A stretch of DNA of 39,619 nt from Rhizaria sp. SCN 62-66 (lineage: Eukaryota): positions 1 to 39,619 of the forward strand of contig MEDY01000312.1 in NCBI GenBank assembly GCA_001724265.1, in the 5' to 3' direction. The notes beneath the pieces were generated by a model that had not been told where the DNA came from, made no database searches, and worked only from the letters and a program-made list of their open reading frames with translations. Both the position numbers and the translations under genes were made by a program. This document shows positions 9,001-32,646 of this stretch, piece after piece. The first letter of the stretch is position 1, and every line of letters begins with the position of its first letter.

Positions 9001-9870
9001 GCAGCGCGCGCGGCGGCGGCACCGGGACCGGCGCGCTCTCGTCGACCACCGAGACAGCAGCAGCAGTGCCAGGGTCGGTGTTGCTGTTGGGGACGACAGG
9101 CACGTCGATGAACGCGTCGAGTCCGTGGAATAGCCCGCGCGGGGCCGCGCCAGAGGCGGCGACTGCGGCGGCGGCGGCGGCGGGCGCGTGCGGCGCGAAC
9201 ATGCGCAGCCGGCCCCAGTGCGGGAGCGCGCCGGCCGGGAAGGCCTGCGTGTAGGCGGCCAGGTAGAGCAGGCGCATGTAGACGAAAAGCACAGGCACTT
9301 CGGCCTCGCCCGCGCGCGCGACGGCGGGCGCGGCGTCGCCGGCCTCGGCCACGGTCACGGGTGACTTGCGGGACCGCGAGTGCGAGCGCAGAGCAAGGGC
9401 GGCGACGGGCGCGCGCATGGTGCCGGCGAGCGAGTGCCCGCGGAGCGCCTCGCTAAGCACGGCGGGCGCAAACACAATGCCGGACCGCGCCAGCTGCTCG
9501 GCGGCCGAGAGCGCGGCCGCGGCGCGGCGGCCAGCGCACGAGACGAGGAACTCGGCGACCGTGAGCACCAGCACGGGCGCGGCGGAACCGAAAAAGTCCG
9601 TGAAGTGGTTAAGCTGCAGCGACTCGAGCGACTCGAGCACGATCGGCGCGCGCACGACGGCACCGTCGGCGTCGCCGCCGCCGTCGGCACTGCCGGCACT
9701 AGCGGCGTTGCCGTCGGCGGGGACGGGGAGCAGCTCGCAGTCGTCGCTGCCACCAAGGCGTTTACTGCCGCTGTCGCTCTTGTCCCATAGTGCGGAGGCG
9801 GGGAGGAAGGGCGCGGCGTCGACGAGCAGCGCCTGCGCGGCGGCGGCGTGGCTGGGCGGCAGCGCCACGC

Positions 9871-9901
<31 letters not shown>

Positions 9902-11606: not shown

Positions 11607-11639
<33 letters not shown>

Positions 11640-14600
11640 GCGTCGGTGTCATCGAGCAGACGGGGGCGGGCGGCGCGCGCGCGCAGCGCCGCCACGGTGG
11701 CCTGCGTCGGCGGCGGCGGCGGCGCTGCACTCGCAGAACCAGAGCCCGCAGGCGCAGCCCCACTCGCAGTCCAGGCCGGCGCGGCGGGGTAGGGGAATGC
11801 CATATAAGTCGCCTCTGCACTGGCGCTGGCGCTGGCGCTGGCGCTGCTGGTGGTGGTGGTAGTGAGCGCGACAGGGGAGTACGCAGCCAGAGTGGGGTCG
11901 GCGTCGATCATTGGGGCTTCAGCAGGGGCGGAGTCCGCGCCGTCGCCGCCCTCCATAGTGAGGAGGCGGGCGCGCGGGCGCGGGTGCTCCAGGTGGTCCA
12001 TGAGCCGGTTGAGGTGCACCAGCACGCTCAGCACAGCGCCCGCGGCCCCCGCCACAGTGGCCCCTCGCTCTGCCGCGCTACCGGCGCTGTGCCCGGCGCC
12101 GTGGCCGTGGCCGTGGGGGGCGGCGAGGGGCAGCATGACGTCGGGCAGCGCGCGGAGACGCGTGGCCTGCGCGGCGAGCGCGTCGGCCATGGCGGGCGAG
12201 GGCAGAACGCCCATCGCGAGCGTGGCCTGGTAGAGCCGCAGCAGCAGCGCGTGCAGCTGCTTCGTGCCCAGCAGCCGCATCAGCCGCGCCGTCACCGCGA
12301 AACGCACGCCCGCGCCCGCGCCCGCACCCGCGTCCGTGCCGTGCGCGGTGCGGGCCTTGAGGGCGGCGAGGCGCGCGGCCGAGTCGCGCAGCAGGAGCGC
12401 CACAGCCGTCTCGGCCTGGCGCGACGCCACTAGGCCGGCCAGCACCGAGAACAGCTCACCGTCGCTCAGTGTGTCCGCCGCACCGCCAGCAGCAGCGGCA
12501 GCGCCAGTGGAGGCGTGGGCCGCGGCGGCCTCTGCCTCTGCGTGGGCGAGCGCGGCAACGACGCTCTCGGCGCGGCCCGAGAAGGCCAGCGCGCGCAGCT
12601 GCAGCAGGCGCGCCTCAGCGGGCAGCGGGCCGCGCAGGCGCGCGCAGAAGGCCACGTCGAGAAGCTTGCTGCCGCTGTCGGTGTCAGTGTTGGCGCTGGT
12701 GCTGGCACTGGGGATGTCGTCGGCGGCAGCGCCCCCGGGGGCGGAGGCGGAGACCGTGGCCGAGGCCAGGACGGGGTGCAGCGCAAGCAGCGCGGGCGAG
12801 GCGGGCACGGCCACGGCCAGGGGGCTGCCGGCCACGGAGCCGGGGCCGGGCGCAGGGGTCGCGGCGACCTGAGAGAGGGGCAGAGGAAACAAGGGAATGA
12901 GGCGTAGAAAGAGTACGTGAGGAGATGTCACAGTGAAATTGTTATAATGCAATTAATCAAAAATAATAAAATCTAAATACAAGTCAAAATATCACAGAGT
13001 CGCAATTAACCCAAGTAAATCAGTCCTATAAATCACGATGTGAGACAGTAGACCGCAAGAGATCGATCGTACGTACCTGGATGGCTGCGGCGGCGTGGGT
13101 GGGCAGCCCGCGGCGCAGGAAGCCGGCCGCGAGCGCGGTCAGCACGGCGGCCGGGAACGGCGCCACCACCTCTGCGCGGCCCCGGACCACGCGCGCCACC
13201 ACCGCCTCAGCGCTCTCAGTGGTCTCACTCCGTGAGGCGCCCTCAGTGCAATGCAGCGCGACCGCGCCCTCTGCTGCGAGGGCGGCCTCCTCGGCCGTGG
13301 GCGCGTAGCAGGCGAGCGCGGGCGCCAGCACCTGCATGGCGGCCGTGGCTGTCGGCGAGTGCGCACCCAGCGCCGTGGCGGCCGCGACCAGGTCCGCGCG
13401 CGCCAGCGGCAGCCCCGCGCGCGCGGCGGCGGCCAGCAGCGCGGCCAGCGGCGCCAGGTCGCGAGAATGGGCCACAGTCGCCACGGTGCTGCCAAGCGCG
13501 GCGCGCGCGGCGGGCAGCGGCTGCCGCGCCGCGAGACCGACGACGCGTGCAAGCAGCGCGTGCGCGCGGAGCCGCACGCAGGCGCGGGCGAGCGCGGCGG
13601 CCGCGGTGGGAGCCAGCGGCACCGCGGCCTCCTCGGCCCAGCCCACCAGGTCCGCCAGCAGCGCCGTCGTCGCCGGCACAAACGAGACCTGCGCCGACGC
13701 ATGCGCGCGGGAGCCGGCGCCGGTCGCGCTAGTTGCGGCGGTCGCGGCGGCGGCGGCTGCTGCTGCTGCTGCGGGAGCGGCGAGCGCGGCGGGCTGGGTG
13801 AAGCAGCGCGCGGCGGCGAAGACGATCGCCGACGTGACCGCCCAGTCTAGCACGGGCGGCAACGCGCGCGTCGAGGGCAGCGATGCGGCGCTATCACCGC
13901 TGCCGCTGCTGCTGCTGCTGCTGCTGCTGCCGCTGGACATGTCGCTGGAGTCGCGGCCCGTGAGGGGCAGCGGGGGCAGCGGCCCGTCTGCGAGGGCGCG
14001 CAGAAGCCGTAAGACCCACGTCACGGGCACGTCCGCGGCCGCAAAGCCCGACACCAGCGCCGCCGCAGCGAGCTCGCTCTTGCCCGCGCCCACGCTCACG
14101 CCGGCATTGTCTGTCGCGTGACTACTGCCGCTGCTGCTGGGGGTGAGGGCGAGGGCCAGCGGGGGCGAGCGCGCGAGCTGGAGCAGTTCGGCGGCGACCT
14201 CGTCGGGCATGGGCGCGGCCCAGAGCTCAGTCTCAGCCGTCGCTGCCGCCTCGTGGGGGTCGAACACGGCCGCGGCCGCGGTCGCGGCGGCAGTAGGCGT
14301 GGCGGCGCCGGTCGCCGCGGCGGAGGCTGCGGCGGAGGCTGCGGCAGCGGTGGCGGCCTCAGCGGCGGCGGCCAGTTCGGCAACGCGCGCGGCGCGCCAG
14401 TGCTGGGCGGCCGCGGCAAGCGCGTCGAGCGCGCGCGTTAGCGGCGTGAAGGGCAGCGAGCCGCCGGGGGGCGGCGGCAACAGCGACGACGACGACGTAG
14501 TGGCCGAAGCTGAGGCTGAGGGTGTGTGAGCGTAGGAAGAGAAACAGGCGCGGGGCGCGGCGCGGGCAAGCAGCAGCGCGGGCGCGAGCAGCGCCGACGA

Positions 14601-14945
14601 CGATGACGATGACGACGACGATGACGACGATGTAAAGGACGACGACGACGACGAAAGAAGTGCCGGGGTAGGGCGCATGACTGTCGCTGCCGCAGCAACA
14701 GCAGTGGAGTTGTTGCGCTCGGACAGCATCACGGCGGGCACGTGCGCGTGCGCGGGGAGAGAAGGCCTGGCCGAGGCAGATCCGGAGATAGTCGAGGCAG
14801 AGGCAGCAGCGGCAGCGTCGGCCGTTTTAGCTGTTGTTGCAGTTGTCGTGGCTGCGGAGCCGGGGAGGCTCCGAAGCAGGGAGGGGGCAAGCACGCCAGG
14901 CTTGGCAGAGCCAAGGCGGCGAAGAGCGTCACTGAGCGGATGCAT
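1..14945 (-). CDS. Giant (>4,900 aa, 3'-truncated by the window edge) Ala-rich alpha-helical repeat protein with degenerate PPR-like motifs and a probable mitochondrial presequence; 2 exons: 14945-13077 and 12868-<1; apparent 1-nt frame break near 2685
   Basis: ATG at 14945 (MHPLSDALRRLGSAKPG..., Arg/Ser/Leu/Ala-rich, acid-poor). Phase-0 intron 13076-12869 (CAG|GTACGT...CTCTCTCAG|GTC) joins ORF 13026..15104 to ORF 2618..12952. Below about 2685 the coding-like frame changes (LGRAPLRLPIATSAVAVTE...) and stays open to base 1. PPR-like segments include ALALRVFDHCKRGAVALPPPAYAALLALAARGRVRGRLWELFDDM and PLTTPLLWAVLEAALRHGGAGHALAVFTALR. The PPR call is by eye only. Confidence 0.75.
12869..13076 (-). 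other. GT-AG spliceosomal intron (208 nt) in the giant gene
   Basis: AT-rich island between two GC-rich exons; donor GTACGT, pyrimidine-rich stretch and CAG acceptor; splicing preserves frame (phase 0). Confidence 0.9.
14594..14655. repeat. (GAC/GAT)n trinucleotide microsatellite encoding poly-Ser in exon 1 of the giant gene
   Basis: gacgacgatgacgatgacgacgacgatgacgacgatg...gacgacgacgacgacga; translates on the minus strand to [20 protein letters not shown]. Confidence 0.85.
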
Positions 14946-16202
14946 GGTACCGCGCAGAGTCGATCTGGAAAACAATAGAAGGCAAGAGCGCGCGAGAGAG
15001 ACATGGGTAAGCGTCAGGTGAGACTGGTTCGACAGTGGAGCGCGGCGATTGCGGTTGTGACAGATGGTAAAGCTCTGCAGGAGTATAAAAAGAAGATTAT
15101 ACACAAAACGTAATATAAGACCAGGTACACACTGAACATTCTATGCTTACGATTATACACATGTGCTATTCGAGCAATGCGCAGTTCGAGGACTCAACCA
15201 ACCGCAGGCCCACAGTCGGGTCACTTTCGGACTCGTAACCGGAGCCTACATTCTAAAGATCTAAGAGAGGGAAGATGTTCGTTATTATGAAACTTCTTGC
15301 TGGATTCGAAGGATAGACGTGATATTGTGTTATATTCTATTTGTCATTTGTCTCCTGGATTTCGATGCGATGCACACCAGCGCTGTCTTTCTGAGCTGGC
15401 TTCGCCCGACGCCAGTCTCAAGCTTTTGCTTTTCGTCTTTGCTCTAGGCGTTCATTAGCGCACATAACACCGTACTAGGCGTACCCCTGTGTTATTTGTT
15501 ATATTATGTATTGAAAGCAACTCGATCTTAGCTTGGTAGCTCGTTGTGCCGTCATCTGACCTTGGATTGGCCAAACTGACACCAATTTGGGCTCATGATG
15601 CTTACTCCTTGCGTCTGATTCGCTGTGAGTTTTTGGATTTTGCAAGTGAAATGCTCATCGTGGGAATCTTTTCCAGCATGTAAACAGTGTATTGGCGACG
15701 ATTTACGCTTGTAGGGCTTTATAGTGACGACTTAGAGACTATACAGTGTGCCTTCGAGGGTCATGTGCTGCTGACTTAATGAAGGATATATCTATAGAAT
15801 AAAGACATAATAGCAGAATATCTGCTCCACATAGTAAAAAAGTAGTATTTGTACATTATATAGCAAGTTAGACAACATAAGAGCATGTTTTGTATTCGTA
15901 CACAGCGAGATATGCGTTTGATTGGTGCTTTCGCGCGTTGCACAGCTGTGCTTTGTCGACTTGGTGGTTGGCGCCAAACATTTGCATGAAGCGCACCGCT
16001 GTATATTGAACGTCAAGGCGATTTTAAAGATGAGCACAGCCTTTTATTTTATGATATGTACACTTTTTCTATTTAACGCTTCTTGATTCTGTGTATATCC
16101 GCTGTACCACTTCAGACTTTGTTTTCCTTTCCCAGCGTCTGTTGACCACCCGATCTCGTTCTGCAGCGCCATTCCCCGCGGCCCTGTCCGACTGTTTTCG
16201 CG

Positions 16203-18418
16203 ATGAGTTCCGGTGCTGAGGACGCGTTTGACGCAATGCGTGATGCCGCGGACTCTGCTGGCCCTGTTTCGTTTGATTCGATGTTCCCGGACCCTGTTTC
16301 CTCGTCCTCAGCCTCTGCCAACAGCGCGAGCGCCAGCGCCAGCTCCGCAAGCGCCTCCGCGGGCTACAACGGCGACCGCTTCGGCCTCGACCGCTTTGCC
16401 GCACCTGGCGCTCCCGCATCCCAGCACATCCCCTTGGGCCAGTATTCTCAGCCGCGCTCGCAGCGCACCGCTGACGACGACGGCGACGACTACAACCGCA
16501 GCAACAACCGCCTCGGCGGCGCCGCCAACGATGAGGAGGCGAAGGAGTCTTCTTCTTCTGCCTCGGCGTCGGAGGAGCCCCCCTTGCCGTCGGCGCCTCC
16601 CAAGCGTCCTCCTACGGCCTATTTTGCGTTTATGGCAGAGCAGCGCGCTCTAATCGCTGCCGGCTCAGGCTCATCGGCAGCCGACGATACCGACTCCACA
16701 TCTGCGTCCGCATCTGTGTCTGCAGAGTCCGCGGGCCTGTCCGTGGCGGAGGTGTCGAAGCGCATCGGCGCGCTGTGGTCTGCGCTGCCCGCGGAGGAGA
16801 AGGAGGCTCGCGCCGCCGCCGCGGCCGAGGCCAAGGCCAAGTGGGAGCTCGAGATGCGCGCTTACGATGCCGCTGCCGCCCGCGCCCGCGCCCGAGCGCG
16901 CGCGCTCTCCGGCGGCGACGCCGACGCCGGCGACGACCACAGCGACGCTGAGGCCGCCGGCTCTGCTGACGCGGAGCAGAGCACGAAGCTGCTGCTGCCA
17001 CTATCTCGCGTCAAGCGGCTGATGCAGACTGACCCCGACGTCAAGGCCGTCGCGCGCGAGGCACTGCTCTTCGTCACGCGCGCCGCCGAGGGCTTCGCGC
17101 GCTACCTGGCGCGGCTGGCGACGCTGCACGCGGCCAAGACGGCGCGCAAGACGGTCAAGACGGACTTCTTCAAGGCCGCGGTGCGCGCGAACCCTTCGCT
17201 GGAGTTCCTGTCCGAGTGCGACTTCCTCCTCACGGGGCCAGAGCCCAAGTTTGCGAGCGCGAGCGCGAGCGCGAGCGCGGGCGCCAAGGGCAAGGGCAGC
17301 AAGGGCAAGGACAAGAAGAAGGCCGCCGCTGCCGTGACAGAGGGCGAGGGCGAGGGTGAGGGCGAGGGCGACGGCAGCGACGGCGAGGCGGAGCGTAAGC
17401 CGGCCCGCAAGGCCATTCTCGACTCGTTCAGCGCCGCCGCGGCGGGCTTCGGCGGCGGTGACGGCGGGTTTGAGCTCGGCGGCAACTACTTCGGTGACGA
17501 CGACAAACAGAAGGCCAGCGCCAGCGCCAAGGCCAAGGCAAAGCCCAAGGCGAAGGAGCCGAAGGCGACTGCGAAGAAGAGCGGCAGCGCATCCTCTGAG
17601 AGCAAGAGCAGCAGCAAGAGCAAGAAGATGACCGACGACGACGTTATTAGTGACGGCAAGGGCGACACGGAGGCCAAGCGGCTGGCTCGGCGCCGTGCCG
17701 CTCTCGCCAGCGACAGCGAGGGCGACGGCAGCGGCAGTGGCAGCGGCAGCGGTGACGATGATGAGGACGACAAAGAGGGCGACGGCGAGGATGACGAGGG
17801 CAAGAGCACGAGCGCCAAGGCTGCCAAGGCTGCCAAGGCTGCCAAGAGCGCCAAGGGCAAGGGAGGTAAGGACTCGGCTGCCTCTAGCGCGGGCGCGAGC
17901 GCGGGCGTAAGCATTCTGAACATGTTTGCGCGCGCGCAGGCGGCCGAGGCGGCGGAAATGCTGCAGGACGGCGGCGTGGCGGCCGCGGCGGAGCGCAGGG
18001 CCAAGATGGAGGCCTTCTTGCGCCAGGGCGAGGAGCAGGACTCGGCGCGGCGCGCGGCCAAAGCCAAGGCGGCGGCTTCGGGCAGCAAGGGCAGCGCCAA
18101 GGGCAAGCGCGGCGCCAAGGCCGGCAAGCGCGGCGGCGACGGCGACGAGGACGACGACATGATTCTCGGCGTTGACTATGAGCTCGACGAAGACGGCGAG
18201 CGCGTAATGCTCAACAGCAACAACAACAATAGCAGCGGCGGCAAGGGCGGCAAAGCCAAGGCCAAGGGCAAGGGCCGTGTCGTCAAATCAGACTCCGAGT
18301 CTGGTTCCGGCTCTGGCTCTGAGGTCTCCGACTCTGACGCCGGCTCCGGCTCTGGCTCTGGTTCTGACTCCGAGTCAGCCGCTGCTGCCAGCCGCCGCCT
18401 AGCCGACAACTGCACCAG

Positions 18419-18449
<31 letters not shown>

Positions 18450-18902
18450 AACGTGAGCTCGCGCGGCCGCCGCCGCGGCGCCGCGGCCAGCAAGCTCGCC
18501 GCGGCCGCGGGCGCGCTGTCGAAGAAGCGCGCCGCCTCCGCCGCGGTGTCCGCCGCTGCCGCCGCCTCGGCCTCCGCCGGAGGCAAGGGCGGCCGCCGCC
18601 GCGTTGTCGTGGACGACGACAATGACGACGACGACGATGACGAGGAGGAGGAGGAGGAAGAGGAGGGGGCGCGGGTCAAGAGGGCCCGGCGCGCGGTGGT
18701 CACTGACTCCGAGTCGAACTCTGACTCTGACTCCGACCTCGAGACCGTCTCCGACGTGGAGGCGGGGTCCGGCAACGACAGCAACGCTGGCGGCGACGAC
18801 GGCGGCAGCGACGGTGACGAGAGCGGCCCCGCCGCCAAGCGGCGCGCGTTCAAGAGCAAGCTGGCAGCCAGCATGGCGGCCTTTGAGTTCAAGCGTCGCT
18901 GA
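16203..18902 (+). CDS. HMG-box plus histone-fold (NF-YC / POLE4-Dpb3 / CHRAC15-like) chromatin protein with a long Lys/acidic low-complexity tail, 899 aa, intronless
   Basis: HMG box PKRPPTAYFAFMAEQR...LSVAEVSKRIGALWSALPAEEKE...AKAKWELEMRAY (about 16599-16866). H2A-like fold LPLSRVKRLMQTDPDVKAVAREALLFVTRAAEGFARYLA...RKTVKTDFFKAAVRANPSLEFL (about 16989-17230). Strong GC3 bias; TGA stop. Confidence 0.85.
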
Positions 18903-19263
18903 GCGCCCGAGGCATGGGTGCAGATTGACGAACGTGCTGCTGCGTCCCCTGTGACCATAGCAGCGTCTTTGCGAAAGGCCAGTGGGTCAACGAGGCTGAC
19001 CGCTTATTATGTGTTTATGTTTGCTAAACTTAAATAAAGTGAGCTATTCAATATTAAAATTCGTGTCTACTCAAAAGAATCCTGGGATTTTGTTCATGTT
19101 TGTTTTGAATAATGTTTTTATTTCAATCGATTCTCTATCTTGCCGTCGTTATTTGTTTTTAACTTGTGTTACTCATGCGCTCGTTACGCGGAGTTGGAAA
19201 ATGTGATGCACACAAAAGTTTTATGTCTGCGTTATCGTCTATTATATCGAATAAGCTGTTTGC

Positions 19264-22200
19264 TTACGCCTGCTTTGCTCTTCCAGCCCCAGTGTCAGCC
19301 CCTTCACGACTCCTTCGACTCCCTTTACGTGCACTGCCGTTTCTGTTGTTGCTGGTGTTATTATTGCCAGCGACGGAGGCTTCAGATGCAGGTTTGCTGT
19401 CTTGCTCGCTGTTTTTGTTAGCACAGCTGTTACTTGGCTTAGCTTTGTCACGTCCGCTGCTGTCGGGACTGCTGTTACTATTCTTTCCTAACTTGCTGGT
19501 TTCAGCAGCAACGCAGCCGCTTTGTTGCTGCTTGTTGTGACGCTGTTGATGTTCCTGCTTCTGCGCAGCCTGAGTGACGCTCTTCCTCGGCGTGTCAGTT
19601 CTAGCCCCAGCAATGCTGCCTTTGTTTGCGTCAGGCGACGGCGCAGCGCTAGTGCTTGCGCTTGCAGCAGTCTCAATGGCCGTCTCGTTGTTGTGACAGC
19701 TTCTACCGCGATTGCAGCTCGCAGCGTCAGCATTGGCAACGCCAGCAAGCTTCGGAAAAGCTTGTTGCTTTTGCAACTTTCCTTGACTTTGCGGATGCTG
19801 CTGTTTGTGTTGCTGTCGCTGTTGAGCTGCAGTCTCAGGGCTCCTCGTTGTTGCGGATACAGTCGCGGGTTTATCGGCTGCGGCATCAAAGCCACTCTTG
19901 CAATTAGCAGTTGCAGCATGCGCAGAGGTAACATCGATCGTTGATTGAGGGCGCAGAGGCGACTGCGACTGTCGCACTGACTGCGACAAGAGCCTAATCC
20001 GTGACCGTGACCGCGAAGTGTGTTCTGTTTTTGCGGCCGCAGTTTGCGCCGCGACAGCCTCAGCGTTATTCACCTGCGGAGAGGGCGTAAAACGACGCGA
20101 GCGCGCGCGCGAGGCGGCGGCCACTGCGGCGACCGCGGCGGCCGCGGAGGCTGCGGCCGCGCTGGCTGTGGCGGCTGCAGCGGCAGCGGCGGCAGTCAAC
20201 TTTGTGACAGGCGTTACCATAGCAACTGTTGGGGTCGGTGCGAGTGGCAGAGTCACACTTGTTGTTGCTGCCGTTGTCACTGCCGCAGCGGTAGTCGGGC
20301 TGTGTAGCGACTACTGCGATCGCTCTTGCGACTGCAAGATCTCCAGCAGCGACGGCAGCGGCAAGGGCAGTGGCGCAGGCACAGGCGTCAGCGCAGCCGC
20401 TGTGATCTCAGTTGCTGCTGCAGCTCTTGTTGTTGCGGCCGCGTTCGTGGACGCTGGTGCCGCGGTGGCAACAAATGACTGTCCTAGCGCGGGGGACGCC
20501 AGCGCCCAGCCCTGCTCGTTGCCGTGAGTGTGGGCAGGGAGACGTAGGCTGTGTGCACTGCCACTGTGCGCGTCGGGACTGTGGACACCATGTCCGTTAG
20601 CGCAGTACTCATAAGCCGCGTTTGCGTTATTTTGAGCCGCAGCGGCGGTGGCAGCAGCAGTGGTGGTAACAGCAAGCGGGGACACAAGGTTAAAGCTGTT
20701 GCTACTGTGGCCGTGATCAGCAACAAGACTCGCAGCATCACAAACTGTTGCAGAAACGGGACTCAGCTTGGCACGAGTGCCTACAGCATTGCCATTATTA
20801 CAGCTCACAACGGCGCTGCTGTTGGTGTTCTTTGTGACCGTGCTTGCGTACGTAGTGCTAGGCGCAGGCTCCACGTTGACAGCGGTTGTTGCCGCTGGCA
20901 GGGCAGTGCAGTAATTGTCTGGCAAACTGACCATCTCTAGCGGCGACTCCAGCAGAAGCTGCTGAGAGTGTTGGGGAGACTCAGCAAGCAAGGCAAACAG
21001 GTGCTGTTGCTGATGCTGTTGCTGCTTGAATTCCGTTTCGCTGTCATCGCAGACTACATCAACATTGCCGCTGTTCGTGTCTTGGCCGTGTGTGTTATTG
21101 TTGTAACTGTTGGTGTCCCAGCCAACTGCAGGCCAAGCTCCAGTAATGTTGTAAGCGTGATTAAACGACTGCCCCTGATCATGGCCGTAATCAAAGCCGC
21201 CGCTGTAGCTGCGGTAGTTGTGACTTTGCGTGTTGCTGGTCGGACTAGTTGTGTTATAAGTCGACGGCATGTGCCCAGACTCAGTGCCACGATATGCATG
21301 ACTCAGGTGCTGCTGCTGCTGCTAAAGGTGCAGTTGCTGCTGCTGTTGTTGCAGTGCTTTTGCAATATCAGAGCCAATTTGCATGCCAGCCTCTGCTTGC
21401 GGACTTGAAACTTCAGCGACATGTTCACAGACACCGGCAGCTTGCTCACAATCAGTCTCATCCTCGCTGTCGCAGCTTGCTGCACTGAGCAGCAGCGCGG
21501 CGGCTGCAGTGGCCCCACTGCGCGCTGGCGCGGCCGGCGATGGCGACGGGGAGAGCATGAGCGACCGCGGCCCGCGCCCAGCGTCGCGGTCGCAGTCCGT
21601 GGCCCCGCGAGACCGGGTGCCCGCGCCGCGGTTCGGACCAGCACCAAAGCTTGAGAGAGCGTTTGTGTGAGAGTTAGGGCTGTTGCGCGATGTTGTCGTC
21701 GCCGCGGCGCTGGCAACTAACGCAACAGTACTGCGCGGTGGCACCGAGTTGCGTCGCACCCGTGGGTCACTGCCACCGGCATCAGCGTCAAGTCCTCCCA
21801 TCCCTGTCGCTTCCGTTGCCCTCACAATAACAACTGCTGCCGCGGTAGCGCTTGTTGCGGGGGCAACACTTATAGCGTCTGCAATAGCAGTAGAACCTGC
21901 AGTGGCGCGGCCGTCGCTGCTCACAGTCACAGTACTGCTTGTATCAACAGTGTTTCCAACAACACCTAGTTTACTGTCGGGGGCACTTGTGACATCAGTG
22001 TTGCTGCTGACGCGAGGAGGGCTTGAAACAGCTGCAGCCACTGGGGATGGCCGCATGAGCGCCTCAATGTGCTTTGCATCGAGCACTAGAGGCGCTGTGG
22101 CTTCAGCGGATGGCTTTGACATCTCAGCAGCCTGAGATGCGGACTTGAAGGTGAACGCGGACGAATACTGTGGGTGGCCGCCGCCATTACTGCCGCCACT

Positions 22201-24755
22201 GCTGTTGAATGCGGCTGTGTTTGTTGTATTGGAGCGACGCAGCGGCGATATGTGGGTGCTGCTCCTGCTGACGTCTGCTTGACCCTGTGCAATGCAGTTG
22301 TTATACGCAAGAGCATAACTATGAGAGACGTCGTGATTTTGAGCGGAGTAGCTGTAAGTATTGCCATGAGCAGCAACGGACGCCTAACCAGGCCCAGCAG
22401 CTGCGCTAAGAGCTGCTCCAAAGCTTGAGCTCGAGCTGGGGCCTGGACCGCGGCTGTGATGTCCGTGCGCGAAGCTGTGTTGGTGGCCGTTGCTAGCACC
22501 AGACATGTTGCCATAGCTCTGACTGCAGCTGGAAACGTTGTAGTTGTATGCGGCGCTGTTGTTCTGGAGTTGAGCACTCGAGATGTTGTGACAGTTGTAA
22601 TGTGTCGGTGTTGGTGTAACAGACTGAGCGCTCTGGCATCCGCTTGCACTTGCGGATATAGCATTAGTACTGCTGTTGAGGTTGCTGTAGCTGTTACTCA
22701 CCATCGCCGTTGTTGGAGTCGGAGGCCGGCCCCCGCGCCGGCGCCCAGTAGTACTGTTACCGTTTGAGCCCGTGTTCGAGTTGAAGCTAAAGCCAAGGCC
22801 ATTATTATTATAACTGCTGTAGCCATGGCTGTAACCGTAAGCAACGCCTGAAATAACAGGAGTTGGTGCGTGGGGCAAAACAAGCGACCTCGCGCCGTGC
22901 TGAATGCTATCACTGGTATAGCAGTACTGCTGCTGCTGCTGCTGCTGTTGGGCTGGCGTTGCATTCGGCGTCGGTGTCGGTGTCGGCGCGTGCTGGCGCG
23001 TAACGGCGCGCGCATTGCGCGGCACAGGGGTGCTTAGCCGCGCGATGGGAGTGCTTACAGCAGCTACTAAGGGGGTACTCACCCCGCCAGGTCCGCCACT
23101 GCTGCTGGACAGGAGCTGCCCTCCACGTTGAGCCCGTAACAGCATCTGCTGTTGTTGTTGCTGCTGCAGTGGCCCTCCGCCCTTGAACTGCTGTTGCTGA
23201 ATTGTTGAGCGCCCACCTGTGGCCGAAAGCGGTGTGTTGCTAAGCGCTTTCACATTAATGCTACTACTGCTGCCGTGGCTGCGGTCGCTGCTGCCGCTGC
23301 TACTGTGTACATTCGCGCGCGGCCGCGGCTCTCCCGAGGCAGAGCGCGCGCGCACCAGGGGCGAGAACGACGTCGACGGCGACGGCGGGGGCAAGTGGTG
23401 TGCGAGCGCGGCGGCGGCGCCGGAGGCGGGGGAGTCGTGGGCAATGTTGGGGATTAACAGAGAGTGGGACACCTTGGACAGCGCCGCCATCAGCGATGTC
23501 TTTAAAGATAGAAGAAATGGAGGACACGAAAGGCGGATAGGGTTAGCGTACATATTTGACAGACACAATGCATTTTTTTAGCACAGATAGTGTAACGTGA
23601 TCATACCTTGTGGTGGGCCGACTTGGCAACGAGCTGGCCGCAGCGCTGCATGGTCAGTTCCCTGTCGTGCGCGGTGAGTTTGGGCGTGGGCGCTGGCAGC
23701 GGACGCCGCACTTGCTGCCACTCGCTGCGGCGCCAGCAGTCAACCCGCGCGGCGTCCTTCTCGGCGCGCCGCGCGGTGCGGAAGGCGCTGTTAAGCGTGG
23801 GAATGTTGACCATGTCAAGCACGCTAAGCGCCTCAACGGGCTTCACGTCGGCCTCCTCGTTGAGCACGGAGACGGTGACCGTGTAGCGGTCGATGCACGG
23901 CTGATCGTTAGTGAGCCCGCCGTCAAGCGCGAGGCCGTGAGACGTGCGCGGGATGTCGCGCAAAAACACCACAGGCAAACAAGTCGACGCAATGATGCAG
24001 TTGATTAGGTCGTCGCGCGTCGCAAAGCGCGACACGACACGGTTCTTGAAGGACGGGAAGAGTGTGATGGACAGAAACAACCGGTCTGTCGCGCGGATAT
24101 GCGCGTCTTCGGGCAGGTAGTTGCTCCACAGCGTGCGGTAGAACGCAGTTTGGTCCAGAAAGCAGCCCAGCGGACGCGTGCGGTAGTGTGTAAGACAGTA
24201 GGGCCAGTCGCGGCGGCACCACTCGTAGGGGTCGCGGCCCATGGCCAGCGGCACCGCGGCGAAGCAGCCGCCCGAGCTGGCGAGGAACTTGACGCGCGCA
24301 ATGTCAAAGTTCTTAAACAAAAAGTGGCCTACACCGAGATAGTAGCACCACAGCATACCACCGCCGCCGAAGGAGACCGAGGGCCCAAACTCGAGCCCCA
24401 AGTCCTGCTTGGGGATGAAGGAGCGCACCAGCCACACAGCGTAGAAGCGCTCTGCCAACCGTGAAAAGCACCAGAACCACAGGGCGTTAACGTGTGACGT
24501 AACAGCGGCCGCTAGTGCACGAGCAGGAGATGTTATTAGGGCCGTCACGGTAGCAGTGAGCGCACGCGTCGGGGCTGTCACTGCGGTGGTCATAGCGGCT
24601 GCAGCGCGCGCGGTCAGGTCGGACGCGGCGTCTAGCGGCAACACAACGCAGAAGTGATACAGGAGAATAATGAGCTCGAAGAGGAGCTTATGTAAAATGG
24701 TAGCGCGCGCGACGCCGTCCGTCGTGGTCACTGTGCGGACCAACTTCGGCGCCAT
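19264..24755 (-). CDS. Patatin-like phospholipase/lipase (PNPLA family) with a long low-complexity C-terminal extension; exons 24755-23607 and 23499-19264; three in-frame TAG codons (22386-22384, 21324-21322, 20313-20311), predicted 1,794 aa if TAG is a sense codon
   Basis: Exon 1 carries patatin motifs: SFGGGG (Gly-rich loop), FLASSGG (nucleophile elbow variant) and LDGG. Intron 23606-23500 (AAG|GTATGA, GCTAAC branch point, TTTAAAG acceptor) is phase 0. ORFs 22384..23568, 21322..22122, 20311..21270 and 19264..20280 share one frame, and I translated the gaps between them with no further stops. The frame ends at TAA 19266-19264. Confidence 0.7.
23500..23606 (-). other. Predicted 107-nt GT-AG intron joining the patatin domain to the TAG-containing exon
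   Basis: Minus strand: CACAAG|GTATGA ... TACGCTAACCCTATCCGCCTTTCGTGTCCTCCATTTCTTCTATCTTTAAAG|ACATCGCTGATG. AT-rich, has branch point and pyrimidine tract, preserves frame. Confidence 0.75.
23601..24755 (-). CDS. Patatin catalytic exon; if unspliced it gives a 384-aa patatin-like lipase ending at TGA 23603-23601
   Basis: ORF 23601..24821 with likely start MAPKLV at 24755; N-terminal hydrophobic segment; GGGG, ASSGG and DGG motifs. Confidence 0.85.
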   Translation of the reverse strand: MAPKLVRTVTTTDGVARATILHKLLFELIILLYHFCVVLPLDAASDLTARAAAAMTTAVTAPTRALTATVTALITSPARALAAAVTSHVNALWFWCFSRLAERFYAVWLVRSFIPKQDLGLEFGPSVSFGGGGMLWCYYLGVGHFLFKNFDIARVKFLASSGGCFAAVPLAMGRDPYEWCRRDWPYCLTHYRTRPLGCFLDQTAFYRTLWSNYLPEDAHIRATDRLFLSITLFPSFKNRVVSRFATRDDLINCIIASTCLPVVFLRDIPRTSHGLALDGGLTNDQPCIDRYTVTVSVLNEEADVKPVEALSVLDMVNIPTLNSAFRTARRAEKDAARVDCWRRSEWQQVRRPLPAPTPKLTAHDRELTMQRCGQLVAKSAHHKV

Positions 24756-25803
24756 CGCGGGCTGCGCGCAAAGCAAGAAGACAAGACGGGTCGAAGAGTG
24801 GGTCACAGAAAAGACTGGCATTCTTAGAGATGATTATAGTTGTGATAGAAGATATTAATATACCAAATTTAAGTTTAAGTAATATTAAATTAGTTTCCAG
24901 TGTTATAATTGCATTAAGTTGCCTTGATAGACCAGCCAATAGCTTTTCCAATCGGGATGTCATCCCGACCCTCTGATCGCGTTGCTGACTGCCAACGGCT
25001 ACATCTTGAACGCAGCGTTCAGGGACAACACAACAACCATCAAAAATACGCTCACAATAATATGCAATATTGCAATACTGTGTCATACTAACACAATTTC
25101 CTTTGTTCTTGCATCTATTGTGAGTATGTACTTGATCTAGACGATTTGTAAATGCGCAACTTGAAGTTTGAATACGGAGCCGAATCGACAATATATAGAG
25201 TGTTTTGTATAGAGTGTTTTCAATTTCATAAGCTCGAAACTATCTAAAAAGGAAAAAATCATTCTATTTTTTGTTGATACATGTATGAATGGATTAGTAT
25301 GTTTTTTGTTGTTCTATGATCGTAATCCTTAATTTTCCGATCCCTGTTCAGATACAGTTTGCATTTCTGACCTTAGGCCAGTTGGGCTTGTGTGTGGTCG
25401 TTAAGCGAAACATGACTTTCTGCATCAAGAGCCCGCCCATCATGTCCATTGTTTGGATATACGATTTGAACACAACGTGAGACTTTTAATCTACTTGAAG
25501 GCCACTCGTTTCATCCCGTTGACATTGCGCTTCACACGCCGCGAGTTGCTCCTCTCTCCTTTTTGCGAGTGACGTCGCCCACTACCACATAAGGCCAATT
25601 TTCCTCATGATAGACTTCTGTTTTTCCGAATTAATCAGGACATGCAAATAATGCAAGTTGGTTTATGTCATAATTACAACATTATATCCTACTCGTCGTG
25701 GACTAGCTCTCTCCAATTCTCGTTTCTTACCTTGCCAACCAACTCGCTCATTTGCCTCTTGTCTCTATGACTTTCTGACTCGTTGCACACAGACGGGGTT
25801 TTC

Positions 25804-27924
25804 ATGCGGCTGTTCCTGCTGCTTCTTCTGTCAGCTGTGCTCTCCGCCACGGTTGCCGCCACCGCGGCGCTGTCGCTGGCGGTGGACTCGACGACGCCGT
25901 TGTTCGCGGACCCACTGACCGCGCCCAAGGTGCGCACCAACACGACGCAGGGTGTGGTCGAGGGCTACTCGTACCGCCACGTGCACCACTACCGCGGGCT
26001 GCCCTACGCCGCGCCGCCGACGGGCTCGAACCGCTTTCGCGTGCCGCAGCCGCCCGCGGCGTGGTCGGGTGTGCGCAAGGCCTACGCCGACGGCCACGTG
26101 TGCCCGCAGTTCCACCTCTCCAAGTCGCTCTATCTGGGTAAGGAGGACTGCCTGTACCTCTCGCTCTACGTCCCTGAGAAGGCCAAGACGTCCAAGACGC
26201 CGCTGCCCGTGCTTTTCTGGATCCACGGCGGCGCCTGGGTGCTCGGTGACGGCTACGAGTTCGGCTTTTACGACGGCGCGACCCTGGCGCACGAGCGCGG
26301 GGCCATCGTCGTCACCATCAACTACCGCCTCGCCGCGCTGGGCTTCCTCGCGCTGGACGAGCTGCGCGACGAGTCCGAGGACGGCAAGAGCGTCGGCAAC
26401 CTCGCGCTCAAGGACCAGCGCGCCGCGCTGCTCTGGGTGCAGCAGCACATCGCGTCCTTCAACGGCGATCCGCACCGCGTAACGCTCTTCGGCGAGTCGG
26501 CGGGCGCCTTCTCCGTGTGCTTCCACCTTGCCTCGCAGGCCTCACGCGGGCTCTTTGCGGCCGCCATCGTTGAGTCGGGCACGTGCGACTCCCGCCTCTT
26601 CTTCGTCCCGCCGCAGCAGGCCGTCGCGTGGTCGCGCACGTGGCTGCGCTCCGTCGGCTGCGACACGGCCACGCGCGCGGGCGTCATGGCCTGTCTGCGC
26701 GGCAAGAAGGCCGAGGAGCTGGTTGCGCCCCCCGTGCTGCGCCGCACGGCCGCGGCCTGGCGCACCGCCGGCGAGCTCGCCTCGGGCCTCGCCGCGCCGG
26801 GCCCCAACGACGCCGACGCCGCCATCGACACTCTCGCCGTCGCGTCCCTCACGAACCTAACCGCAGCTGACGCCGAGATCGTGCGCGCTGTGTTCGACCG
26901 CAAAAGCGCGCGCAACGCCGCCTATGCCGCGGTGCTCTCGGCACCCGGCGTTGAGTTCGGCTCCATCGCGCGCTCGGTCGCGTTCGACGACGCCGCCGCG
27001 CTGCGCGCTGGCAAGAAGCTCGCTCGCGAGGTCGAGGCTGAGGCCGAGGTCGCCGCGCTGGCGCACTCCCTGGCGCTCGACGACGCCGCCGCGCTCGCCG
27101 CGCTTCTGCCCCGGCGCGCGCCCTCTGCTGCGGCCGCGGAAGAGGAGGATTACTACCCGCCGATGTACCCGCTCATGTCCTGGGCCGCGGTCATCGACGG
27201 GTCGCCCCACGGCCTCACTGACGCACCCTCGCGCGTCATGGCCGCCGGCCGCGGTGCCGCGGTGCCCGTGGTCATGGGTTCCAACAAGGACGAGGGCACG
27301 CTCTTCATCCCCATCATTCCGCTCATCGTGCCCGGCGTGTCGTTCCCGCTCAAGGCCGGCGACATCCCTGTCGCACTGCGCCACGTCTTCGGCGCCGACT
27401 TCCCCGTCGAGGCCGCAATGGAGCTCTACCCCGCCAAGCAGTTTAAGTGCTCCGGCTCGCGGTTTGCGCAGATGCTCCGCGACAACATCTTCACTTGCAC
27501 GGCGCGCCGCGTCGCGCTCGCGCGCGAGCCCTTCAGCGCGCGCGCCGGCGCCGGCGTCGGCGCCGCGGGCAACGGGACGACCCACATTTACCACTTCACC
27601 TACAACTCGGGCTTCATCGAGACGCTGCTGCTGGGCACCTACCACGCTGCCGAGCTGCCCTTCGTCTTCCACAACGAGTGGCCCTGGCTCATCCACGCCT
27701 TCAAGCCCGCAGACCACAAGGTCGCAAAGGTCTTCGGCGCCTACTGGGGTAACCTCGCCGCCACGGGCGCCGTCAATGGCGTTGCGGGTGCGCCCTTCGC
27801 AGGGCCCGTGGCCTGGCCGGCCTTCACGGCCGCCGCTGAGGAGACGCTTGTCATCGACAAGGCCAGCTCAGTCAAGGCCGGGCTCTTCAAGCCGCAGTGC
27901 GAGTTCTGGGACGCGCACGTCTAA
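25804..27924 (+). CDS. Secreted type-B carboxylesterase / cholinesterase-family alpha/beta hydrolase, 706 aa, intronless
   Basis: Signal peptide MRLFLLLLLSAVLSATVAA; family motifs GLPYAAPPTG, EDCLYLSLY, WIHGGAW, NYRL; catalytic triad FGESAG (Ser), GSNKDEG (Glu), YHAAEL (His); C-terminal CEFWD; TAA stop. Confidence 0.93.
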   Translation: MRLFLLLLLSAVLSATVAATAALSLAVDSTTPLFADPLTAPKVRTNTTQGVVEGYSYRHVHHYRGLPYAAPPTGSNRFRVPQPPAAWSGVRKAYADGHVCPQFHLSKSLYLGKEDCLYLSLYVPEKAKTSKTPLPVLFWIHGGAWVLGDGYEFGFYDGATLAHERGAIVVTINYRLAALGFLALDELRDESEDGKSVGNLALKDQRAALLWVQQHIASFNGDPHRVTLFGESAGAFSVCFHLASQASRGLFAAAIVESGTCDSRLFFVPPQQAVAWSRTWLRSVGCDTATRAGVMACLRGKKAEELVAPPVLRRTAAAWRTAGELASGLAAPGPNDADAAIDTLAVASLTNLTAADAEIVRAVFDRKSARNAAYAAVLSAPGVEFGSIARSVAFDDAAALRAGKKLAREVEAEAEVAALAHSLALDDAAALAALLPRRAPSAAAAEEEDYYPPMYPLMSWAAVIDGSPHGLTDAPSRVMAAGRGAAVPVVMGSNKDEGTLFIPIIPLIVPGVSFPLKAGDIPVALRHVFGADFPVEAAMELYPAKQFKCSGSRFAQMLRDNIFTCTARRVALAREPFSARAGAGVGAAGNGTTHIYHFTYNSGFIETLLLGTYHAAELPFVFHNEWPWLIHAFKPADHKVAKVFGAYWGNLAATGAVNGVAGAPFAGPVAWPAFTAAAEETLVIDKASSVKAGLFKPQCEFWDAHV

Positions 27925-28707: not shown

Positions 28708-31659
28708 TCACCGCATGTTAACGCCGCCGCCGCTGCCAGCGCCAGTGCCCGTGCCGACATTGGCGGGGCCGTGACCGTGGGCCGCGTAGTGCTGCTGCTG
28801 GTGCATGGGATAGGGCGGCGCGTGCGCCGGATGCCCGCAGTCGTCCCCGTTGCAGCCTGCGCTGCCATTGCCTCTAGCAGCAGCCGCGTGACCGCCGTGC
28901 CCGTGGCCATGACCGTGGGCGGAGTGACCGTGGGTGGAATGACCGTGGGCGGAATGACCGTGAGCAGCGCCCAAGCCGAGCGAGGCCGCGGCGGCGTGCG
29001 CGGCCGCGGTGGCCGCCGCGGCCGCTGCCTGCTGCACCGCCGCCGACACGGGCACCGACACCGAGGGGGCGGCGCCAGAGGCAGCAGCAGATGCAGAGGC
29101 TGCGTCGTGTTGATGATAGTGGTGGTGGTGTTGGCCTTGACTGTCGTCGCCATCGCCATGCCCATGCCCATGCTGCTGCTGTGGCTGCTGCAGAGCCACG
29201 GCGGCGGCGTGCTGCGCCGCCTGCAGCGCGGCCGCGGTAACGGCCGCGTACACGGCGGGGTTCGCACTGGCCACCGCGGCCGCCGCGGCAGCAGAGTCCA
29301 GCTGCGGCTGGCCCTGCTGCTGTTGGTGTTGGTGTTGTTGATGATGATGCGACTGTGCGTGTTCGCTGTCGTCGCCGGCGCCGTTCGCTGAGGCGTCACC
29401 ACTGCTACTGCTACTGCTGCTGCTGCTGCTGTTGCTGCTGTTGTTGCTGGTGTTGATGTGATTATAGCTGCTGCTGCTGCTGCCGCCGCTGAACTGGCCG
29501 TGGTTGTTGTTGCCGTAGGACCCATGACCGTCAGACACCGCCTCCGCGGCCGCGTCCGCCGCCTCTGCCTCCGCCTCCGCCTCTGCCTCCGCCTCTGCCT
29601 CATCGTCGTCGCCCGCGTCGCCGCCGGCGCTGGCGGCCGTGGTGACGGCGCGCAGCTTGAGGTCCGCGAAGAATGGGTGCGCGAGCGCGTCCTGCGCGGT
29701 GATGCGCGTCGCCGGGTTGACGTCGAGCAGGCGCGCGAGCAGGTCGAGCCCCACGGCGTCGAGGCGCGGGCACACCTGTGCCAGCGGGACGGGCGCGAAG
29801 CGCGGCAGCTGCGAGGGGTCAAGGTCCGGCAGCAGGGCCAGCGCGGGCAGCTCGGTTAGCGAGGGCGTGCCCAGCAGCGAGAAGATGACGCGCAGCTGGT
29901 CGGCGTTGCTGGCGCCGGGGAAGAGCGGGCGCCCGTTGACCATCTCGGCGAAGATGCACCCCACGGCCCAGGTGTCGACGCCGGGCCCGTAGTTGGTGCC
30001 GCCGCAGAGCACGTCGGGATCGCGGTACCACAGCGTCACCACCTCGGGCGTGTAGGCGTGCGGGGTCGCGCCGAAGAGCCGCGCCAGACCGAAGTCGGCC
30101 AGCTTGAGCTGCCCGTCGAGCGTCACCAGCAGGTTCTGCGGCTTCAGGTCGCGGTGCAGGATGCGGTTGCGGTGGCAGTACGCCAGGCCCTGCGGACGGC
30201 GCAGTGGGATGTGATGCAGTGTGGTGAACATCAGAGTGGTGGACATCAGAGTGGCGGACATCAGAGTGTGCAGTGGCAGTGCGATGGAGTATAGCGTGGT
30301 TTAGCATCACACAGTTGAGTTCAGTGCAATGCAACGTGATTGTGGAGAGATAAAAAAGAAAACAAGTGAATTGATGAGAGAAATGACATTTGTGTGGCTT
30401 CTGTAAGATATACAACAACTGCGCTCGATTGCGTGTGAGTTATGTTAAGCCGTACCTGGAGGGTCTGGAAGAGGAACGACTTGACCGCGAAGGGCTCCAG
30501 CCCGGCGGGCCCGCACGCGTCCACAACGTGCTTCAGGTCCTGCGCGTATGTGTGCGACGTGTGTGTTTACGTGCGTATGTAAGGGATTGCAGTCGGGAGA
30601 GAGGGTGAAAAAAAGGGGGAGCGGGTTTGGGTGAGTAAGAGTAGGAAAAAAGCGCGTTTTGCAAGTAAATGTGACGAAGTACAGTAAAAAACTCCTAAAC
30701 TCAATAAATCGATTCCTAGTGTGCGCGCGTGCCTGATGGAGGTACTCGAAGACGAGGGTGAGGTGCCTGGGCGCGTGGACGACGTCGAGCAGCCGCACCA
30801 CGTTGGGGTGGTCTAGCTGCCGCAGGATCGAGATCTCGCGCAGAGACGTCGACGGGATGCCTGCGCGTGCGTGTCGCGGGGCAGTGCGCGGTGTGTGTGT
30901 AGCGGTGTCGTGTTAGGTGTATCGGACAGAGTGAGAGTGCGAATGTGAATGTGTGAGCGAATAGTGCGGAGTTGTTTTGAGATTGTTTTAGTTTAGATAG
31001 ATATGATTAAATGCAATTTATGAATGACGCAATGCTATAGGCAAGGGACGCATGATAAACAAAAGAGCAGTCAGGATGTAACGAGCTGACCGCTCTTTGC
31101 GCCGTTCAGCTGCGGGCTGCGAGATGCGAGACGTGCCTTCGTCATCAGAGTTGAGGCGGATACGCTTGAGCGCGAGCGTGCTGCCGGTGCGCCAGTCCGC
31201 GGCCTTGAACACCACGCCGTACGTGCCCTCTGCGCGGGCGAGGCGAGGGAGGCGTGCGAGGCGAGTGAGGCGGGAGAGTGAGATGATGGAGGAGTTAGGT
31301 GATCGTGAGCGTGAGAAAAGAGATTGAGGTGGACGTGTGCGTTGGGTTGAAGTTCATAAAACATGCTAAGAAATATGCTACGCGTGTCAGGACGCAGGAC
31401 GAATGCAGAACGTACCGCCAATTTTACCGAGGACAGTGTACTGTTCGCGAGGGCAAACAGCGTCGCGAGTTGAGCAGAGAGCAAGGCAGGGCAGGAATGT
31501 ACGGGAAAGGAGAAGAGAGGAAGGAAAAAAAAAAAGGCGTGAGCAAACGTGGAAAACAATCTGTGCGGCTGCGACTATCGAGCCTGCGGCTGAGACGGAC
31601 GGTGACAATAGTGTGGATATGTGACCGTGATGTGAGTGTGCCGGACGTACCCGGTCCAT
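28708..31659 (-). CDS. Cyclin-dependent kinase (CDK2/CDK5-like, PSTSLRE cyclin-binding helix) with a His/Gln/Ala-rich tail, 606 aa; exons 31659-31651, 31440-31416, 31229-31137, 30860-30733, 30539-30456, 30189-28708
   Basis: Spliced product [21 protein letters not shown]...[39 protein letters not shown]...[11 protein letters not shown]...[10 protein letters not shown]...LADFGLAR...VVTLWYR...HPFF. Exon phases are consistent (1,821 nt total); TGA stop. Confidence 0.92.
30226..30268. repeat. Short 15-bp tandem repeat (about 3 copies, ACATCAGAGTGG(T/C)GG) in CDK intron 5
   Basis: gaacatcagagtggt ggacatcagagtggc ggacatcagagtg. Confidence 0.8.
30540..30732 (-). other. GC-AG intron (CDK intron 4)
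   Basis: CATCAG|GCACGC...CGCGCAG|GACCTG; required to rebuild the conserved FEYLHQDLK sequence. Confidence 0.85.
30861..31136 (-). other. GC-AG intron (CDK intron 3)
   Basis: GAAG|GCACGT...CGCGCAG|GCATC; required to rebuild the conserved DEGIPST sequence. Confidence 0.85.
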
Positions 31660-32646
31660 GAGGCGAGGGGGCTGTCTGGCGGTAGAGCTCGACCAAACCA
31701 GCCACGCGGGCGCTTAGGGACGTGTGCAGAGCGAGAGGGTAGACTACGGGGGAGCAGACAGAGACTGCTGCGCGCGATTGCTGAGCTGGGGTCCGGGTGG
31801 GGTTGCCAAGCCTTGTTGGCTGCAGGGGAGAGCGCGGGGGGAAAGAAAGAAGAGGCGTAGGGCGGTGAGACTTTGGGGCTAGAAAAAATAAAACTTAAAA
31901 ATCCCACATTAACACATGCAGAGCAACTAGAAAAAACGTATTTGAACACACGCTCGTTGTTTAGCACATATATGAGGCATTATTGCGTCGTCCCTTGTCG
32001 AGGCGAGATACGCTGCTGAGCGCTCCTCTGACGGCATAAAGCGGGTGATGCAGCATCAGATTGGCATGCTGCAAAAAAATAGAGCTGTTAAGGGCGCATA
32101 TTATCGGAATCAAGAGGCATTGTGGGTGTTGCAAGCGTTAGTCGTCGTGCCGATGAGGCAGAGCGAGGGAGCAGCAACTGAGGAGTCCATGGTGAAAGCC
32201 ATGCCCAGAAAGTGGGGAAGATGAATCACAGAAGGCACATTAATAAAGGATCATGACATTCCGATTCCAATAAGTCAAAATGCGTCGTCATAACTGCAAA
32301 CTTGCGACCAGTATAATATCTATATCGAGCGTCCGGAGCCCTTCCTGGCCCGACCCCCCTTGCCTCAATTTTTCTCGAGGCAACGGGCTGGACGATGACC
32401 CAGAGTTCAAATTCAGTCAGCGCAATTCTAGATTCTGCCATGGAAACTCCGTTACCAGACTGTGCGCACATGTATCATATGGATTGCTGATAGAGATACT
32501 ATAATCTCTTTTTATTTTTTCTAGGGCTTCTTTCTGCGCGCACGCCAGCTTCGAACCTCCCAGCTGACCCTGCACTGCGCCACACCGCGCCCGTTTTGTT
32601 CTCCTCCTCGCGCTGCGCTTCTGCCGCGCTTCCTCTGCGCGCCCCG
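31660..32646. promoter_or_regulatory. Putative bidirectional promoter region between head-to-head CDK and CDC23-like genes
   Basis: Inferred from position only: 987 nt between divergent start codons. No specific element recognised. Confidence 0.35.

Follow-up and report, generated by a model that had tools for sequence, protein, structure and literature searches.

We analysed a 39.6-kb stretch of DNA from Rhizaria sp. SCN 62-66 (contig MEDY01000312.1, positions 1 to 39,619; hereafter the window, i.e. the whole stretch at its full length), with a focus on a 4.2-kb reading frame of its minus strand (19264-23499) that is crossed by three TAG codons and in which an original prediction had seen a nuclear genetic code reading UAG as glutamine (Gln). 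The openness of this long frame is far above chance level, and the frame is probably the second exon of a patatin-like phospholipase gene. We see an even chance that the organism uses the standard code and that a continuous, orphan coding tail was recently hit by three nonsense changes of the CAG-to-TAG type.

Retranslation of 19264-23499 on the minus strand bore out that there is a single 4.2-kb frame interrupted by three TAGs only, as originally proposed. It comprises 1,412 codons including the terminal TAA, shows no frameshift and no internal TAA or TGA, and its internal stops, at codons 372, 726 and 1063, are TAG each time. The features of the locus, all on the minus strand and listed in the direction of reading, are the following (aa, amino acids; nt, nucleotides; GC3, GC content at third codon positions).

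23607-24821, minus strand: exon 1, encoding a patatin-like phospholipase; 405 codons, the first being the ATG at 24821 and the last the AAG at 23609-23607, GC3 0.78
23500-23606, minus strand: likely spliceosomal intron of 107 nt, donor AAG/GTATGA, pyrimidine tract, acceptor AAAG
22387-23499, minus strand: segment 1, 371 codons, open, low-complexity and rich in Q, S, A, T and N, no Pfam match
22384-22386, minus strand: TAG 1, context CCT GGT TAG GCG TCC, standard-code terminator of a 776-aa protein
21325-22383, minus strand: segment 2, 353 codons, same frame, open
21322-21324, minus strand: TAG 2, within QQQQQQLHL*QQQQH, in an imperfect 21-nt tandem duplicate
20314-21321, minus strand: segment 3, 336 codons, same frame, open
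20311-20313, minus strand: TAG 3, context TCG CAG TAG TCG CTA
19267-20310, minus strand: segment 4, 348 codons, same frame, open
19264-19266, minus strand: terminal TAA; the spacer behind it is AT-rich (GC 0.26-0.42 over intervals of 80 nt)

The distance to the convergent HMG-box gene, whose stop lies at 18902, is 362 nt, in line with the roughly 360 nt given earlier. Over the same interval (19264-23499) the remaining five frames contain 30, 83, 25, 53 and 54 stops. From its own position-specific base composition, the long frame would be expected to hold 24.4 stops (TAA 7.2, TAG 11.0, TGA 6.1), i.e. eightfold more than it does; under this model the probability of three stops or fewer is 7e-8 and that of zero TAA or TGA is 1.5e-6. 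As the segments behind the TAGs (353, 336 and 348 codons) are moreover each open individually, the frame is coding now or was coding until very recently. GC at codon positions 1, 2 and 3 of segment 1 is 0.56, 0.61 and 0.64, and the GC3 of the whole frame is 0.57 vs 0.78-0.91 in the other genes of the window, indicating a weak codon bias. The sequence is biased in composition, with short repeats rich in CAG and GCN, and only two short tandem arrays lie within the 4.2 kb. Compared with one another, the four segments show no similarity; the regular intervals between the TAGs are thus coincidental. A check for terminal repeats of a mobile element found none.

The three TAGs are real in the DNA and are not assembly errors. 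The stretch occurs in runs from bioreactor and wastewater metagenomes, none of the listed runs being recorded as RNA, and the organism is present in X1-X4 and X14. The TAGs called in the original prediction recur in an independent run: contigs of X4, which comes from a different study and year, cover 20117-20906, 21197-21539 and 22125-22911 and agree at all three TAGs, no difference being listed there. Additionally, a contig of X3, possibly the source sample, covers 20225-23588 with zero differences. The error-free contigs of the poly(A) run X14 map to patatin exon 1, the carboxylesterase gene and 18986-19267, the last being attributable to either of two convergent genes; they leave 19268-23499 uncovered, which counts as no evidence, and a link from 23607 to 23499 is not seen among them. 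Run X7 carries an RNA-Seq label, yet is probably DNA. Apparent contig 'joints' were considered as splice junctions and rejected, being short low-complexity cross-matches with sides of 18-26 nt.

The frame begins shortly after a neighbouring gene seems to end. Exon 1 matches the Pfam family PF01734 (Patatin) with 34.3 bits vs a cut-off of 27.7, and its residues S183 (in ASSGG) and D300 (in DGG), which we take to be the catalytic dyad, are invariant in 7/7 aligned sequences. Its homologues (47-68% identical, 284-445 aa) are matched along their whole length. The nearest named ones are two Paulinella (Cercozoa) proteins, P0007 and P0009, at 47-58% identity; one of the two stands under a GEZN01 accession, from the series of the P. 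chromatophora transcriptome, and the other, 'g36976.t1', is presumably also from Paulinella, a guess from its naming style, so that these matches give no more than a lead to the taxon. The TGA at 23601 that seems to end the patatin open reading frame (ORF) is held within the donor of the candidate intron (AAG/GTA TGA, 23609-23601). This donor matches the form G[T/C]A[C/T]G, like the eight other donors read in the window. Eight introns were placed there by protein continuity or by ORF joins (three each in the Rab and CDK genes, one joining ORFs of 692 and 3,444 codons, and a donor in the ORF 32596-33689); window introns are 107-276 nt long with 13-17% G. The candidate has 14% G, within the 13-17% of the seven introns fixed by continuity, and its length falls within their range. 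Its deletion fuses ...AHHK with TSLMAALSK... in frame.

A new result is that the long frame appears to start right behind the acceptor of a likely intron of 107 nt, in frame with the patatin-like exon. The original prediction of one exon stood as regards its extent, and needs correcting as regards its free-standing nature, since the first base, 23499, directly follows the likely splice acceptor. The frame probably forms the second exon of the patatin-like gene, with a splice junction placed from the DNA rather than from RNA. The joined product has 776 aa to the first TAG and 1,816 aa with all TAGs read. The closest relative, P0006, is encoded on a 5.2-kb contig and is 65-68% identical in the patatin exon; it has the C-terminus ...AK-VCILTS, an end that might be expected from its protein sequence if a prokaryotic gene caller had run into the same AAG/GTATG donor. 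Alternatively, the patatin protein stops at TGA 23601, in the manner of its 284-445-aa homologues, and the long frame is a separate gene, for which ATGs are available at a distance of just 47 or 110 nt.

The tail encoded by the long frame is an orphan. All seven patatin homologues, the two of Paulinella included, stop at most ~70 residues from the end of exon 1 and have no counterpart of the tail. A phmmer search with long-frame residues 250-1411 against 1.84 billion representative proteins gave two matches, both pieces of the frame's own ORFs. The protein library holds a 244-aa ORF, P0004, which is a piece of segment 2 (100% identical), and P0003 (319 aa, 100% identical), which is the ATG-started ORF of segment 3. 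A word-based protein search with segment 1 (lengths 204-650 aa) gave no relative, and none of the 592 pattern matches to the tail in JGI metagenome contigs was confirmed. Genome contigs searched with P0006, and viral contigs also searched, showed no synteny via the patatin exon. One JGI metagenome contig (L001, 1,846 nt) carries at 535-1846 a patatin homologue with 77-84% identity in the domain; this relative has a very different base composition (40% GC), and its contig stops before the tail. Being spread over different frames, the L001 homologue probably has introns.

Under the standard code, the 4.2-kb frame would be a genuine coding region, kept for a long time but orphan and of low complexity. 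It would most likely serve the patatin-like phospholipase gene as its 3' exon, attached via the 107-nt intron, or else be an abutting gene. Three recent point mutations would have produced the TAGs, most plausibly C-to-T at CAG, both the CAG ancestry and the timing being deduced. Translation would now stop at 22384-86, yielding the 776-aa protein, and the 3.1 kb behind the first TAG would be a young, frame-intact relic, present as 3' untranslated region (UTR) or as untranscribed DNA. A frame far more open than chance was selected for openness. As CAG is abundant in it (57 targets), TAG is the commonest product of one-step nonsense, making up 50-54% of stop-creating substitutions, so that three TAGs out of three have a probability of 0.125-0.155 (~0.13-0.16) under random one-step nonsense; that all stops are TAG is not significant by itself. 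The codon that matches TAG 2 in the other 21-nt copy (TRF array 21305-21344, period 21, 1.9 copies) is CAG, which fits a C-to-T change, nonsense or synonymous alike. Lesions are limited to the long frame: the six well-supported neighbouring gene models (the giant gene, HMG/CBF, patatin exon 1, carboxylesterase, CDK and Rab; 6,921 codons) have no internal stop, and their zero TAG fits lesions of a single gene over a genome-wide property. Judged from its absence in the patatin homologues, its lack of relatives and its weak codon bias, the tail looks dispensable and, as an orphan of low complexity, could be lost without harm.

Several points weigh against a freshly truncated tail. Three lesions without a frameshift, TAA or TGA are an unlikely pattern for a pseudogene, roughly estimated at 1-3% of three-lesion histories; this figure takes frameshifting indels to occur about as often as nonsense changes and is a judgement, not a value calculated from data. 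Decay after inactivation cannot account for the low GC3, as such drift would give dozens of stops; a low GC3 that predates the lesions, together with the lack of frameshift, TAA and TGA, makes the interruptions very young. TAG is moreover absent from the five verifiable terminators of the window (TGA 4, TAA 1, TAG 0), for which a standard code with ~20-25% TAG ends gives P ~0.24-0.33, and in both of the two ORFs that seem to end in TAG, this codon lies within an intron. Finally, the mRNA would bear a 3.1-kb in-frame 'UTR', far above any spacer of the window.

Part of this counts in favour of a UAG that codes for an amino acid, probably Gln, throughout the organism, with UAA and UGA as stops, the codon being rare and found mainly in weakly biased genes, and with a 1,816-aa product. 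This would be a code of the Iotanema type in an uncultured and possibly cercozoan eukaryote; we regard this as doubtful, though a serious contender. It would account for TAG being the sole type of interruption in 1,412 codons, with the frame unchanged behind each, for a long frame whose own end is TAA, and for the terminators free of TAG. Two of the three TAGs adjoin Gln codons and one pairs with CAG in its tandem copy, and UAG-only reassignment has a precedent that includes Rhizaria (PMC5304391). Yet the codon is missing elsewhere in the window: the six gene models contain 185 Gln codons (169 CAG and 16 CAA) and 0 TAG, vs 57 CAG, 36 CAA and 3 TAG in the 1,411 codons of the long frame, so that 0/6,921 stands against 3/1,411 (Fisher p = 0.005 per codon, 0.04 per Gln codon). 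This difference is softened by codon bias, as the strongly biased genes use CAA, relative to CAG, 6.7x more rarely than the long frame does; if TAG scaled like CAA, ~1.3 TAGs would be expected over the other 169 CAG positions, with P(0) ~0.26 by our own arithmetic. Within the long frame itself, TAG (3) is 12x rarer than CAA (36) and 3.7x below the expectation from composition, and such rarity would require that UAG became a sense codon very recently or is decoded poorly. The two UAG-only codes described in PMC5304391 use UAG densely (384 in-frame UAGs in 71 genes, 204 in 126 genes). In-frame UAGs across many genes at conserved positions were not found within the 39.6-kb window, the TAGs occurring solely in a frame that has no homologue and hence at no alignable conserved position. 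ARAGORN detected no tRNA gene and Rfam no family in the window, which is thus free of a suppressor tRNA in its 39.6 kb only, and it holds no eRF1 gene. All the evidence for this code, whose prior is low, comes from one orphan frame, and one orphan, low-complexity frame cannot carry a claim on the genetic code. As the evidence of the window points both ways, 'probable', the grade first given to the variant code, is too strong, and 'possible' suits it better.

The remaining explanations keep the standard meaning of TAG at least in part. Leaky or context-dependent TAGs, either as programmed readthrough or with a dual meaning of the Condylostoma type, would give nested C-terminal extensions and would agree with a frame intact behind each TAG; for ciliates, codes have been described in which a stop codon is read differently according to where in the mRNA it stands (PMC4967479). 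The three contexts (TAG GCG TCC, TAG CAG CAG and TAG TCG CTA) nevertheless have no common motif. Only the CAG after TAG 2 partly resembles what we take to be the published readthrough contexts. Three successive readthroughs at ordinary efficiency would leave almost no full-length product, so readthrough would be unable to keep segment 4 open, and we consider this mechanism improbable. Still less credible is the removal of the TAGs within introns, which would leave an unbroken frame in the mature mRNA under the standard code. The organism does have introns, eight being placed in the window with two of the GC-AG type, and a 117-nt candidate (GCACGG...TTACAG) with a length of 3n encloses TAG 1; but three introns would all need lengths of 3n to preserve the shared frame, and TAG 3 has 0 G[T/C]A[C/T]G donors with a 3n partner at most 500 nt upstream. 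The 117-nt candidate contains 30% G vs 13-17% in the eight real introns, the candidates at TAGs 1-2 are exon-like in composition, the sequence that the candidates enclose is open and codon-like, and no AT-rich or G-poor island occurs at any TAG. We hold it to be just as far-fetched that each of the four ORFs is a gene of its own, or that the stretch does not code and is kept open by trinucleotide-repeat composition. The biased composition with its short CAG/GCN-rich repeats would suit the latter; however, one frame is common to all four ORFs, no AT-rich spacers separate them although all intergenic spacers of the window are AT-rich, repeats amount to two short tandem arrays in 4.2 kb with mutually dissimilar segments, and the eightfold deficit of stops is measured against the frame's own composition.

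The contig of the window is eukaryotic, with spliceosomal introns, a coding GC3 of 0.78-0.91 and AT-rich spacers and introns. Its composition is very uneven (71-81% GC in the first 15 kb, then 44-72%), and its introns are G-poor on the coding strand. The proteins encoded include an HMG-box and histone-fold protein, the patatin-like lipase, a type-B carboxylesterase, a CDK-like kinase and a Rab-type GTPase. The ORFs of 692 and 3,444 codons (2618-12868 and 13077-15104, minus strand) fuse in frame via a 208-nt intron (12869-13076) into a 4,092-aa gene with ~78% GC, a GC3 of 0.89 and no Pfam domain. At 16203-18902 (plus strand) an 899-aa protein is encoded, with an HMG box at residues 170-221 and a CBF/NF-Y-type histone fold at 265-327, the domains being flanked by long acidic and Ser/Gly-rich low-complexity stretches. 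The carboxylesterase is uninformative on taxonomy, with its best named matches in Thecamonas (45% identity) and Capsaspora (41%), and a protein atlas yielded family names only. One contig of X4 bears a second variant of this gene at 26175-26352, where 17 differences fall within 178 nt; it could come from a related strain or a paralogue. In the CDK gene, 2/3 introns are of the GC-AG type (30540-30732 and 30861-31136, minus strand; donors GCACGC and GCACGT), and joining of the exons restores an unbroken CDK sequence (e.g. …EYLHQ/DLKHVV…); the share of GC-AG introns in the window, 2/8, is high. Finally, a multi-exon gene lies at 32596-37200 (plus strand), where exon 1 (32596-33689, donor GTACGC) is followed by about seven GC-rich blocks with AT-rich gaps; no Pfam match and no homology that would anchor its exons were found.

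The two leading readings differ in their consequences. Should the TAGs be plain nonsense changes, the locus would be no more than the fast-evolving and newly truncated tail of a lipase gene. The alternative, to which we lend limited credence, would be a young and sparse reassignment of UAG to Gln in a wastewater eukaryote that has kept UAA and UGA as terminators, at an early stage at which only weakly biased genes are affected. Were this true, the organism would add a third UAG-only lineage beyond the ciliates, and a second one within Rhizaria, going by PMC5304391, and its very low UAG usage would be informative on the first capture of a stop codon; translation of the TAGs would also make it a rare natural case of UAG and UAA with separate meanings.

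Titles and the opening parts of abstracts on UAG = Gln in Cercozoa (2017 onward) and on stop-codon reassignment in activated-sludge protists pointed to no such organism. The closest known system on the side of translation is the nuclear code of Iotanema spirale, with UAG for Gln and with UAA and UGA as stops (Panek et al. 2017, PMC5304391); 204 in-frame UAGs in 126 genes are reported, 348/730 contigs having at least one, and many of them lie at conserved Gln. If the TAGs of our long frame are translated, it resembles that code in having UAG as the only stop codon in frame, a UAA end, other genes ending in UGA or UAA and Gln-rich surroundings. It differs in that three TAGs are confined to one orphan frame, with 0 in 6,921 other codons. 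A UAG-only precedent within Rhizaria is provided by exLh (Sainouroidea), where UAG encodes leucine (Leu) and 384 in-frame UAGs in 71 genes fall mostly on conserved Leu (PMC5304391); the patatin exon of the window is nearest to the cercozoan Paulinella, at 47-58% identity only, and, unlike in exLh, the sole informative TAG context here pairs with CAG (Gln). With patatin-like phospholipases (PF01734; P0007, P0009) the gene shares the domain of exon 1 and the invariant Ser and Asp, and it departs from these homologues of 284-445 aa by a tail of 371 to 1,411 codons. Compared with usual decay, the three lesions are peculiar in comprising no frameshift, TAA or TGA. They are similar to those of a young unitary pseudogene or a nonsense-truncated tail in that the stops lie in one gene and follow the commonest one-step route, from CAG to TAG, and in that the affected part is orphan, of low complexity, weakly codon-biased and absent from homologues.

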